A DNA stretch of 20,000 nucleotides, taken from contig JBDRRP010000022.1 of the NCBI GenBank assembly GCA_043825735.1, positions 49,231-69,230 on the forward strand. Direction: 5' to 3'. Below are positions 2,801-6,708 of this stretch, in pieces (position 1 is the stretch's first letter; each line of letters starts with the position of its first letter). A model generated the notes under the pieces. It saw only the letters and a program-made list of their open reading frames with translations. It had not been told where the DNA came from and searched no databases. Source of the DNA: Pseudomonadota bacterium. GTDB lineage: Bacteria > Desulfobacterota > Desulfobacteria > Desulfobacterales > JBDRRP01. The position numbers and the translations under genes are program-made.

Positions 2801-2934
2801 ACACGGACACACGGACGAACACGGACGGTCACGGACTGACACGGACAACAGCAAAACAGCCGATGCCCCAGGCCCCTGTCCGTGACCGTCCGTGTTCGTC
2901 CGTGTCAGTCCGTGTGTCCGTGCCAGTCCGTGTC
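2801..2934 (+). repeat. Palindromic CACGGAC/GTCCGTG array element R1
   Basis: 5x CACGGAC (2802-2846), spacer AACAGCAAAACAGCCGATGCCCCAGGCCCCT (2847-2877), 6x GTCCGTG (2878-2932). Lies between convergent MFS and DUF401 genes. Confidence 0.95.
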
Positions 2935-2946
2935 ACGCCTTGCCCT

Positions 2947-4239
2947 TCAACCCCACCGCATCAAAATGAAAAAATAGACCAGACTGCCGATCACCAACAC
3001 GAGGCACGGTCGCCACAGGTATCGATAGACGGGCCCCAGCCCGGTGCCAAAATAGGTGTTTGACAGCAGCAGGCAAAGATGCAGCGGGGACAGCAGCACG
3101 CCGGCGAATCCGCCGGCAAGCCCCAGCATCATGTAGGCCAGCATATGATCGCTCGCCCCGGTGGCTGTGACCAGAGAGATGATGATGGGAAAGGCGGCGC
3201 CGACGAAGGCGATGGTAATGCCTACCACCAGGCCCACGATGAAGGGCAGCACCACCGCGATGGCCACCAGCGGCACCTGCCAGCGCATCAGCTCGCCGTT
3301 GACGGCGCCCACCGCCCGGCTATCCAGCATCACCCCCTTGAAGATCAGAATGGCCGAGACCATGTAGACCATGGCCAGCAGCTCCTTTTGAAACACGATC
3401 CGTCGAATCGTCGCCGGCTGGAGATCATTGACCCACCAGACCCAGCCGATGGCGCCAGCCAGGGCGATGATGAGCCCCAACTCCTTGGCTACCGCGGCGC
3501 CCCGGCCCACCAGCAGCCCTTCCAACAGGTTTCCCAGCACGATGCCGGGCACGATGGCGATGAGCACCGGCGCCAGCTCCTTGAGAAACGGGATCACCAA
3601 TGCACGTCGCGGCTGTTCCGCTATCGCCGCGCCATTGGCGGGCATCATCCGGCGCAGGTTCAGGTATCCGGCGACGGTGGCGACGACGGTGAGGGGAAAG
3701 AGCGTCAGCACAAAGGTCCACAGGTCAATGCCGGCCAGGGCCGTGGTGAGGAGCACCCCCGGGTAAAGTGGCCACCAGTATTCCCACAGATGGCGGAACC
3801 AGTAATTGATAAAGCTCAACTGGGGACCGGACAATCCGCTGCGTCCACCGATGTTCTTAACCATGGGTGCAGAGAAAATGGCCCCGCCGGGCATGGGCAG
3901 CAGCCCGATCAGGGCCGGAAAGATGACGATGTTGAGCCGGGGGCTTTTGATCAGCCCGGCGAACCGCTCCAGAAGGCGGCCCATCTGCCCTGTTTTTTCA
4001 AGGCTGTGGCTGAGCACCAGGATCAGTGACACCACCAGGGACAGAGACAGTGTCTTTGGATCCACCAGCGCGCTGCCGGCGGCGACGATGACGGCGCCGG
4101 GGGTCATGCCGAAGACCATCCCCAGCACCGCCGCTCCGATAACGAAGGCGTTGCCCAGCGAGAGCTTGAAACGGATGAGGGTCAGGATGAGGCCGAAGAT
4201 CAGAAAAACCCGCACAACGGCGGGGATGGTTTCCAGCAT
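2947..4239 (-). CDS. DUF401 family integral membrane protein (putative transporter)
   Basis: 430 aa, highly hydrophobic; PALIGLLPMPGGAIFSAPMV, NYWFRHLWEYWWPLYPG and SPLHLCLLLS motifs recalled as typical of DUF401. Confidence 0.85.
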   Translation of the reverse strand: MLETIPAVVRVFLIFGLILTLIRFKLSLGNAFVIGAAVLGMVFGMTPGAVIVAAGSALVDPKTLSLSLVVSLILVLSHSLEKTGQMGRLLERFAGLIKSPRLNIVIFPALIGLLPMPGGAIFSAPMVKNIGGRSGLSGPQLSFINYWFRHLWEYWWPLYPGVLLTTALAGIDLWTFVLTLFPLTVVATVAGYLNLRRMMPANGAAIAEQPRRALVIPFLKELAPVLIAIVPGIVLGNLLEGLLVGRGAAVAKELGLIIALAGAIGWVWWVNDLQPATIRRIVFQKELLAMVYMVSAILIFKGVMLDSRAVGAVNGELMRWQVPLVAIAVVLPFIVGLVVGITIAFVGAAFPIIISLVTATGASDHMLAYMMLGLAGGFAGVLLSPLHLCLLLSNTYFGTGLGPVYRYLWRPCLVLVIGSLVYFFILMRWG

Positions 4240-4301
4240 GGGGCGGCTCCCTTTACAAGCGGTGAGAAAAGCCCGTGTTTAGCAGAGCTTTGGCAATGAA
4301 A

Positions 4302-4337
4302 CAACAACGGCAACAACGGCAACAACGGCAACAACAA
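4302..4337 (+). repeat. Tandem nonamer (CAACAACGG)x3 plus CAACAACAA, abutting R2
   Basis: Read directly at 4302-4337. Confidence 0.9.
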
Positions 4338-4486
4338 CACGGACTGACACGGACGAACACGGACGGTCACGGACAACTTCGCATCGTCAAAATATCGGCA
4401 GTTCTGTTTTTGTCCGTGTTCGTCCGTGCCGGTCCGTGTCAGTCCGTGTTCGTCCGTGTTCGTCCGTGTCAGTCCGTGTGTCCGTG
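4338..4486 (-). repeat. Palindromic CACGGAC/GTCCGTG array element R2
   Basis: 4x CACGGAC (4338-4374), 37-nt spacer (4375-4411), 8x GTCCGTG (4412-4486). Overlaps the 3' end of the MBL gene. Confidence 0.95.
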
Positions 4487-5383: not shown

Positions 5384-5526
5384 ACCTTTTTGCCACTCTG
5401 TTTGAGGGCCACGTCCGAAGCCACCTTGTCGATGGCCGGTACGAAATCGTATTCCTGCATGTTTCCCGGCGCCAGGGTGCCATCGAAGTCGTAGGCGATG
5501 GCAAGGGGGATGCGTTTTCGGGTCAT
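5380..5526 (-). pseudogene. HAD-superfamily hydrolase remnant (48 codons, apparent large internal deletion)
   Basis: Manual translation MTRKRIPLAIAYDFDGTLAPGNMQEYDFVPAIDKVASDVALKQSGKKV*. HAD motif I (DFDGT) present, motifs II-IV absent. GGAGG RBS; stop overlaps the MBL start (ATGA). Confidence 0.75.
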
Positions 5527-5641
5527 CGGTGCGATGCCTCCCTGGGGTTCACCCATTAACGGCCGGTGAGCCGCTTATACAACAGCCTGCATTCATTTCT
5601 CATTAGCACAACACAGTGTCATCGGCGAAATGTTCACAGCG

Positions 5642-6400
5642 TTATGACCGCGATTTTCGCTGTGCGGTTCTCACCCGGTAGAGGCGCTCAGTGAAGCCGC
5701 CCTGATTTTCAAAGTCCTTGGCCTGGGCCGCCACCTGGCGGTCAAGGAGGTGGCCGCACAGGTTGATCAGCGAGAGGGCGGCGTTGGCGACGAGGACGGG
5801 GTAGGGGGCGGGGCGGTTTATAGTCGGTGGCGGTATGGTGGGTTGAGGCGTTTGGTAGGGCACACGGACCGACACGGACGAACACGGACGGTCACGGACC
5901 GGTGCCGGTGCATCGTGGGTTTTGCTGTTGTCCGTATCAGTCCGTGTCGGTCCGTGTCCGTCCGTGTGTCCGTGTTCGTCGGTGTGTCCATGCCTCCCGG
6001 GGCGCCTTCTCTCAGCCATAACCCAACACCGGATATCCTCCAAACTGGCACACCGCCTTTTCTTAAACCGCACCAGTGCCGGATGATCCGGCGCCCAAGG
6101 CGTCTCGCCGCGCTGCCGGAGATAGTCCTCGTAGTCCAGCCGCAGCTCTTCCAGACTGGCTCTTGCGACATTTGTCAGCTTGATTTCGAATTTTTTCGAC
6201 GTACCCGAGGCCTGGCTACCCTCGGCGATGTTCTGCACGCCGCTGCGGGCCGCCTGAACCATCTGGTCGTGGGTGCGGCTGAACCGGTCGATATAGCGGT
6301 CGCAGAACTGCACCGTCAGATCATAAATGAGCTGCGCGATCTGAAAGCTCTTCAGCCGGCGATAGCCGCCGTGTTTCGGGATGAGTTGTTCGGGTGCCAT
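5642..6400 (-). CDS. Four-helix-bundle protein (23S rRNA IVP/Avd-like family) with four-helix-bundle suffix domain, carrying an in-frame repeat insert
   Basis: LIPKHGGYRRLKSFQ...RTHDQMVQAARSGVQNIAEGS...EIKLTNVARASLEELRLDYEDYLRQ; C-terminal VANAALSLIN...LLDRQ...FENQGGFTERLYRVR. Start taken at ATG 6400 (AGGGA RBS); ATG 6430 is an alternative. Confidence 0.88.
   Translation of the reverse strand: MAPEQLIPKHGGYRRLKSFQIAQLIYDLTVQFCDRYIDRFSRTHDQMVQAARSGVQNIAEGSQASGTSKKFEIKLTNVARASLEELRLDYEDYLRQRGETPWAPDHPALVRFKKRRCASLEDIRCWVMAERRRPGRHGHTDEHGHTDGHGPTRTDTDNSKTHDAPAPVRDRPCSSVSVRVPYQTPQPTIPPPTINRPAPYPVLVANAALSLINLCGHLLDRQVAAQAKDFENQGGFTERLYRVRTAQRKSRS
5861..5992 (-). repeat. Palindromic CACGGAC/GTCCGTG array element R3 (intragenic)
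   Basis: 4x CACGGAC (5863-5899), spacer 5900-5929 (reverse complement AACAGCAAAACCCACGATGCACCGGCACCG), 7 GTCCGTG-type units of which 3 are degenerate (5930-5992). Confidence 0.95.
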
Positions 6401-6570
6401 GTCGTTCCCTGAAATGTGTATGGTTGCCATTTGGGTATCGGGTTGAAGCCTGTTGATGTGCCCTGGCAGAGAGGATGGCATGAACGGCGGGAGGGAAGGC
6501 CGCTCGGGCTTGCGGGGAGGGATGATAGATGGCGATGACTGTAGCACATTGTAGACCAAAAAAACAACAA

Positions 6571-6708
6571 CACGGACACACGGACGGACACGGACGGACA
6601 CGGACGGTCACGGACAGTGGCCGGTGCATCGTGGGTTTTGCAGTTGTCCGTGCCAGTCCGTGTCGGTCCGTGTTCGTCCGTGTGTCCGTGTGTCCGTGTT
6701 CATCCGTG
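6571..6708 (-). repeat. Palindromic CACGGAC/GTCCGTG array element R4
   Basis: 5x CACGGAC (6571-6615), spacer 6616-6645 (reverse complement AACTGCAAAACCCACGATGCACCGGCCACT), 6x GTCCGTG plus ATCCGTG (6646-6708). Lies between the divergent four-helix gene and typA. Confidence 0.95.

Follow-up and report, generated by a model that had tools for sequence, protein, structure and literature searches.

The window analyzed here is a stretch of 20,000 nucleotides (positions 49231 to 69230 of contig C22) from a draft genome of 160 contigs and 6.8 Mb. This window contains a gene for a predicted four-helix-bundle protein of the "suffix" family, and around and inside this gene are four palindromic arrays of the heptamer CACGGAC, which we call R1 to R4. 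One of the four, R3, is translated as part of the protein. The features that concern us are listed below, with protein segments assigned from a structural model.

2801–2934 (exact units 2802–2932), no strand: R1, 5 CACGGAC units, a 31-nucleotide loop and 6 inverted units
4338–4486, no strand: R2, 4 units, a 37-nucleotide loop and 8 inverted units
5642–6400, minus strand: four-helix-bundle suffix gene, 252 amino acids, matching TIGR04258 and TIGR02436
6005–6400, minus strand: residues 1–132, helices 1–3 and a short helical insert
5804–6004, minus strand: residues 133–199, disordered linker encoded by the array
5642–5803, minus strand: residues 200–252, the suffix (bundle helix 4) and a C-terminal helix
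5861–5992 (exact units 5863–5974), minus strand: R3, 4 forward and 4 exact inverted units, translated within the bundle gene
6571–6708 (exact units 6571–6698), no strand: R4, 5 units, a 30-nucleotide loop and 6 inverted units

Four Arrays of One Design

On its two strands the window contains 43 matches to CACGGAC, compared to 3.34 ± 1.92 (largest value 12) in 200 shuffled versions of the same sequence. All except one of these matches, an isolated unit at 15077, reside in the four clusters. Within the clusters the units follow one another mostly at 10-bp steps and now and then at 8, and four or five exact forward units are followed, after an interval of 30 to 37 nucleotides, by four to eight exact inverted units. 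R3 additionally shows the worn inverted units GTCCGTA, GTCGGTG and GTCCATG. When transcribed, the arrays are predicted to fold with energies of −80.1, −79.7, −68.1 and −86.4 kcal/mol for R1 to R4 (z-scores of −8.1, −9.1, −5.0 and −9.1), and none of 200 shuffled sequences folds equally well.

R1 is located between the convergent stops of an MFS gene (1631–2791, plus strand) and a DUF401 gene (2947–4239, minus strand), and R2 between the stop of an MBL-fold gene and the start of the DUF401 gene. R4 begins 171 bp upstream of the bundle-gene start, between that gene and the divergent typA (6853–8691, plus strand). A short tandem repeat, (CAACAACGG) × 3.8 at 4300–4333, directly precedes R2, and CAACAA likewise stands in front of R4.

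The original prediction, which was made from the letters of this DNA alone, held that the four elements share one palindromic design, and the concentration of 42 of the 43 matches in four arrays where about 3.3 matches are expected bears this out. It also stated that no such array was seen in the other 16 kb. This is accurate for CACGGAC, given the single copy at 15077, and inaccurate for the design, as a palindrome of the same kind built from ATCGNN units occupies positions 13940–14108. The latter array reads ATCGAA/ATCGGG/ATCGCT and then CGATNN, and its arms are 111 nucleotides apart with no gene between them. The same hexamer family brackets a truncated bundle gene on contig C17 and recurs among the tandem arrays of the genome.

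The Palindrome R3 Encodes a Loop of the Predicted Bundle

The 252-amino-acid protein matches TIGR04258 ("4helix_suffix") over residues 203–249 with 68.3 bits, where the family cut-off is 40, and matches TIGR02436 over residues 17–87 with 33.8 bits, where the cut-off is 24. An AlphaFold model of the protein (mean predicted local distance difference test score 77.4) has helices at residues 17–36, 42–63, 69–96, 200–232 and 235–251, a helical insert at 107–132, and disorder from 133 to 199. Superposition of the model on Xcc0516 (2gsc_B) gives a Z score of 12.8 and a root-mean-square deviation of 2.5, with 113 of 117 residues aligned over residues 9 to 227 of the model. The BT_0352 structure (2rld_E) scores 11.6, and two structures of Avd, the accessory protein of diversity-generating retroelements (DGRs), score 9.4 (4dwl) and 9.5 (8ub7). 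Foldseek by itself gives an E value of only 0.04 to 2gsc, a weak score that we attribute to the long insert in the protein. The model helix at 200–232 completes a bundle of the Xcc0516 and BT_0352 type. In this model, the suffix corresponds to the fourth bundle helix, and R3 codes for the loop that joins it to helix 3. Xcc0516 is known to form a homopentameric ring. PADLOC returned no match for the bundle gene.

R3 is read in frame as approximately residues 135–195, between the two TIGR matches, and its translation (HGHTDEHGHTDGHGPTRTDTD ... PVRDRPCSSVSVRV) shows that every frame of the one heptamer is used. The earlier claim that the protein has the fold of Avd and of the proteins of 23S rRNA intervening sequences (IVSs) therefore agrees with the family matches and with the structural alignments. 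The accompanying claim that arrays lie around and inside the gene is also correct, with the refinement that the inner array is itself coding sequence.

The Array Is Retained in Homologous Genes and Its Unit Follows the Protein Clade

At least 8,000 protein clusters match the suffix family, with lengths of 207 to 302 amino acids among the 120 that were listed. When 21 sequences are aligned, the 20 homologues of the window protein keep the linker pattern "TDxHGxTRTxTD...SVxVRxxPCxSV," which is the peptide that results from reading CACGGAC, and then GTCCGTG, in three frames. Because all frames of the heptamer are translated and the heptamer is also present in noncoding flanks, the constraint is on the nucleic acid and not on the peptide.

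We fetched 80 loci from named public genomes that span many phyla, including Thermodesulfobacteriota, Acidobacteriota, Planctomycetota, Verrucomicrobiota, Lentisphaerota and Chloroflexota. Homologues with a palindromic xxGGAC array in the same place come from more than ten phyla. Among the 73 intact genes at these loci, 67 contain at least three units, which are of the CACGGAC type in 23 and of the RTGGAC type in 44; the other six genes have neither. The closest relatives of the window gene carry CACGGAC/GTCCGTG within the gene at a period of 10, whereas a sister clade of about 50% identity carries [AG]TGGAC at a 9-bp period, followed by GTCCA[CT], and its linker peptide reads GQxGRxGQ...SIxSTxST. 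The linker is open in 73 of 77 complete genes.

When the unit type is mapped on a quick tree built with the linker columns left out, it requires 6 changes, compared to 25.9 when the labels are shuffled, and none of 200 shuffles gives a value as low. Both the CACGGAC and the RTGGAC clade mix many host phyla. On this comparison of sequences, the repeat unit and its period follow the protein clade, not the host, as would be expected if protein clades co-vary with their repeats, a check that had been proposed with the original prediction.

Flanking Arrays Are Enriched Near the Gene and Have a Fixed Polarity

The same relationship extends beyond the coding sequence. At 77 loci, runs of at least three phased GGAC (plus) or GTCC (minus) cores were counted by position and strand. 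Upstream of the gene there are 16 plus and 2 minus runs, in the linker 37 plus and 44 minus, and downstream 3 plus and 14 minus. The order along the sense strand is thus fixed, with the GGAC side upstream and the GTCC side downstream. Runs near the gene number 35 in 37.8 kb, compared to 24 in 1,052 kb of far flank, which corresponds to approximately 0.9 per kb within 250 bp of the gene and 0.023 per kb farther out, an enrichment of about 40-fold. A reversed-core control over the same loci yields 13 runs altogether, and in a separate count over 1.12 Mb there are 54 external runs versus 1 for the control.

At six loci the plus arm is found only upstream and the minus arm only in the linker, and at four others the plus arm is in the linker and the minus arm downstream. 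A pair of partner arms can thus bracket one half of the gene or the other. Given an array in the loop between helices 3 and 4, arrays in the flanks, and a unit that follows the clade, the gene and its phased inverted arrays are, as judged from the loci compared, one co-inherited cassette that is patchily spread over many phyla. The enrichment of arrays near bundle genes had been put forward as a test of whether gene and arrays form one unit. Both the 40-fold enrichment and the in-gene array shared across phyla favor that view.

Gene-less Copies of the Palindrome

Genome-wide, there are nine CACGGAC clusters of at least four units. Four are in the window, and the rest are on contigs C45, C72, C93 (two) and C155. 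All except the in-gene cluster are situated at gene boundaries. R1, R2 and R4 are gene-less copies of the palindrome, as are the five loci on the other contigs. We considered whether R1, R2 and R4 might be remnants of pseudogenes, and rejected this because tblastn finds array-encoded residues only and no fragments of the bundle or suffix. The loop GGCCGGTGCATCGTGGGTTTTGC.GTT is common to R1 (as the reverse complement), R3 and R4, and the loops of R3 and R4 hardly differ, which supports the proposal that the repeats have spread.

Other genomes differ in how far the palindrome has traveled. In G150, a member of the same order, four tandem palindromes are located upstream of the suffix gene and two downstream, and their loops resemble the linker loop of that gene. 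The upstream set (3450–3900 of locus L094, on G150:C99) consists of a palindrome of about 108 bp in four head-to-tail copies directly upstream of the suffix gene. In G159, from the Lentisphaerae, there are 314 pattern matches over many contigs, and the reversed control gives 0. G152, G153, G157 and G160 have several additional loci beyond the gene, and in G151, G154, G155 and G156 all genome-wide matches are at the gene locus; control counts over these genomes are close to zero. Thus, a minority of genomes, the present one included, carry copies of the palindrome alone at further gene boundaries.

A comparison with relatives for empty sites, also suggested earlier, was informative in part. At the orthologous site in the congener G001, the C72 array is absent and a single GGAC is found in its place, in a region too diverged for exact borders. 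In the same congener, DUF401 and typA are 98 bp apart, without window positions 4306–6730, and a small palindrome at the junction replaces the 2.4 kb that span R2 to R4. In G008, DUF401 adjoins the MBL gene, and the 9.5 kb there contain neither an array nor a bundle gene. It cannot be claimed that the R2–R4 segment is an island acquired by clean insertion. The arrangement in G008 weighs for a loss in G001, and we regard loss of the segment from G001 as the more likely history on these gene orders.

Other Four-Helix-Bundle Genes

Inverted arrays bracket all five TIGR02436/PF05635 genes in this genome, and every gene has a unit to itself (AAGGATTC, AGGRATTY, AGGAGAT, ATCGNN and CACGGAC; sorted by size, the units are of 6, 7, 8, 8 and 10 bp). 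The GGA-containing side is upstream on the sense strand at the bundle genes of this genome. At 27 loci of plain bundle genes in other genomes of the phylum, tandem arrays are present upstream in 16 and downstream in 15, compared to 4 of 27 and 3 of 28 at far control positions. A matching inverted unit was seen at 7 of these 27 loci, and most of the units are heptamers. PF05635/TIGR02436 proteins are abundant, being found in 69 of 121 sampled genomes of the phylum.

A Repeat Module That May Be Recognized by Its Own Protein

We favor the interpretation that each of the four palindromes is a copy of the suffix family's repeat module (the S23p, 23S-IVS-protein and Avd fold), and that this module belongs to a cassette with paired arms whose units are recognized by the protein. 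We would give this interpretation a probability of roughly 0.55. The arms would pair, most likely as RNA, and a model for this is provided by the IVS stems that enclose an S23p open reading frame (ORF) and are cut by RNase III. The bundle protein, which is putatively nucleic-acid-binding, would recognize the phased units of its own repeats. Pairing and recognition together would make a self-contained, probably selfish module, and the gene-less palindromes would behave as derivatives comparable to REPINs or to miniature inverted-repeat transposable elements (MITEs). The strand asymmetry of transitions, which was compared to distinguish an RNA hairpin from sites on DNA, is 25 versus 26 in the CACGGAC clade and 141 versus 107 in the RTGGAC clade, a count that is swamped by chance matches. 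A search of sequencing runs listed no RNA data set that contains this DNA.

A number of observations weigh against this interpretation. The bases between units are complementary between arms at 53 of 150 positions (0.353), compared to 0.377 ± 0.058 for mismatched controls, so that pairing along the full length of the hairpin is not visibly under selection. Simple helical phasing on B-DNA is hard to reconcile with unit periods that range from 6 to 10 bp. PF05635 (23S_rRNA_IVP) scores 32.1 bits on the whole protein, below its cut-off of 33.8, and 33.6 bits in the genome search, or 34 with neighboring in-frame stretches; we note that this profile can match helices 1–3 only, because helix 4 is displaced. 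A shared loop as a mark of copying holds in the window and in G150, and fails for the set retrieved at locus L036 of G159, where the loops differ between copies. Finally, protein binding, RNA processing and mobility of the cassette are activities that we infer.

Further points on the same side come from arrays that lack a gene. The outcomes named at the outset as speaking against a gene–array pair, among them scattered arrays with no enrichment near bundle genes, are partly seen in another direction, as arrays in genomes without the gene. Among 151 sampled genomes of the order, with an array defined as three units with at most one mismatch, the gene is present in 24, a CACGGAC array in 19, and both in 7. 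An array is therefore found in 12 of 127 gene-less genomes (mostly as a single match) versus 7 of 24 genomes with the gene. One gene-less genome, G075, is 99% complete and has 7 matches with no TIGR04258 hit, in arrays that are short and one-armed. The present genome has unusually many short tandem arrays; Tandem Repeats Finder reports 1,525 hits, of which 520 are non-overlapping arrays with a period of 6–12 and at least three copies. These comprise 191 unit types, yet there are five bundle genes. At the orthologous intergenic site of the C93 arrays, G001 has arrays of other units. The excess of arrays over genes and the different units at the congener site together suggest that short arrays may be a general habit of this lineage. 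Large array families with the units AACCCTTG, CGCAGAG, CACGAAG and AACGATCCC occur without a detected partner gene in this genome.

Three alternatives deserve consideration. The one that survives best is that the arrays are solely cis-acting RNA structures, such as mRNA stabilizers, RNase III sites or insulating terminators, and that the protein is unrelated and does not recognize them. The very stable predicted hairpins, a polarity fixed relative to the sense strand, and the position of every extra copy at a gene boundary would all be natural for such structures. Moreover, RNase III cuts IVS stems, and the S23p of Coxiella is, according to one study, probably not even expressed (PMC4990558). 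On the other hand, it is the units that are conserved here and not the complementarity between them, and a subfamily-specific unit is hard to explain if any stem sufficed. A promoter and terminator scan of the window gave no signal attached to the arrays, and no T-run terminator signature follows them. We therefore consider this explanation unlikely.

Somewhat less probable still is that the arrays are generic, fast-evolving intergenic repeats (slippage-prone minisatellites or repeats like the repetitive extragenic palindromic, or REP, sequences) that have no tie to the protein and are simply tolerated by the loop and by gene borders. The number and diversity of arrays in this genome, their presence in gene-less genomes, and the different array families at one orthologous site in the congener are what such repeats would produce, and the C72 array looks like an expansion in place from a single unit. 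However, generic repeats would not be expected to occupy one gene position with one unit across many phyla, to change unit with the protein clade, to be concentrated near the gene with a fixed polarity, or to be confined to the gene locus, as they are in four of the genomes described above.

It is most improbable that this is a contingency (phase-variation) locus, in which gain or loss of a 10-bp unit would shift the reading frame and switch the suffix helix, and hence the protein, on or off: a 10-bp period is not divisible by three, the number of units varies between copies and genomes, and heptamer number differs among Coxiella strains (PMC4990558), but the sister clade has an in-frame 9-bp period, nearly all complete genes are open through the linker, and the inverted arm and the extragenic arrays would be left unexplained.

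Returning to a repeat module that is recognized by its own protein, a more general form of the idea can be offered tentatively. Bundle genes with subfamily-specific phased inverted repeats could be a large, undescribed class of selfish modules, in which a non-catalytic, ring-forming protein would recognize its own units within nucleic acid that has folded back on itself and would promote their upkeep and copying. ORF-bearing rRNA IVSs would then be a special case that landed in rRNA, and the suffix family one in which the palindrome was captured within the gene. We consider this broader proposal possible, and rather doubtful as it stands.

Relationship to Known Systems

The original prediction had stated that the window contains no reverse transcriptase, transposase or rRNA. 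A Pfam scan of 23 window ORFs finds no reverse transcriptase, HUH or transposase domain, and an Rfam scan of the window finds no family, rRNA included.

The closest known system is the ORF-bearing 23S rRNA IVS, as in Coxiella and Leptospira. These elements and the present cassette share the PF05635/TIGR02436 fold, an ORF inside inverted repeats, and short tandem repeats upstream. In Coxiella, the S23p ORF resides within a 28-bp inverted-repeat stem that RNase III cleaves, a varying number of tandem heptamers precedes the ORF, and an element of this type is regarded as selfish (PMC4990558). The cassette described here differs in that it is outside an rRNA gene, among protein-coding neighbors. 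In addition, one of its palindromes is within the coding sequence and is translated, its arms are arrays of phased units, and gene-less copies are scattered elsewhere.

REP and REPIN sequences provide a second comparison. A REP-associated tyrosine transposase (RAYT) gene has its cognate palindromes on both sides, and gene-less copies are dispersed through the genome. The similarity to such pairs, which had been suggested earlier, lies in a single gene flanked by cognate palindromes, in gene-less intergenic copies, and in a copy number that varies greatly between genomes. It does not extend to the protein, a small helix bundle without known catalytic activity, as the scanned ORFs include no HUH/Y1 transposase, or to the repeats, which are arrays of 6- to 10-bp units rather than single hairpins.

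Avd of the DGRs binds nucleic acid within a complex with reverse transcriptase, and it has the same four-helix-bundle fold as the window protein. Unlike a DGR, the window has no reverse transcriptase domain in its 23 scanned ORFs (no search was aimed at template and variable repeats), and an array-encoded loop interrupts the bundle. Foldback (FB) elements are eukaryotic transposons whose arms are made of short tandem sub-repeats. Long inverted arms of this construction, and short gene-less palindromic derivatives as seen for MITEs, resemble what we observe. The differences are that no transposase domain and no target-site duplication were identified in the present bacterial system.

To our knowledge, PF05635/TIGR02436 proteins have been without an assigned function since the first rRNA IVSs were described. 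Passages of two papers describe PF05635 proteins as uncharacterized (PMC10053308, PMC11270868). A literature search that lay outside subscription journals and supplements found no account of the gene–repeat pairing, and CACGGAC turned up only in unrelated primers. The agreement between repeat unit and protein clade offers a concrete, testable lead, as it names the likely ligand of the bundle protein, and it ties together rRNA IVSs, Avd and dispersed palindromic repeats. Gene-specific phased inverted arrays also supply a rule by which such cassettes can be found and classified. For annotation, they account for odd low-complexity linkers and for genomes littered with short palindromic arrays.

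Other Features of the Window

The neighbors of the bundle gene are the MFS transporter, DUF401, MBL-fold hydrolase and typA genes. Approximately 20 nucleotides ahead of the typA start codon, at 6802–6823, is a terminator-like hairpin with a T-run that may be a leader or attenuator. Beyond typA, the segment 8676–9937 holds a response-regulator ORF (8851–9717, minus strand) and is missing from G001 between typA and the next gene that the two genomes share. A 46-bp sequence downstream of typA (8808–8853) has copies of 93–100% identity on at least ten other contigs and also occurs in the relative G013, and it represents a separate dispersed repeat.

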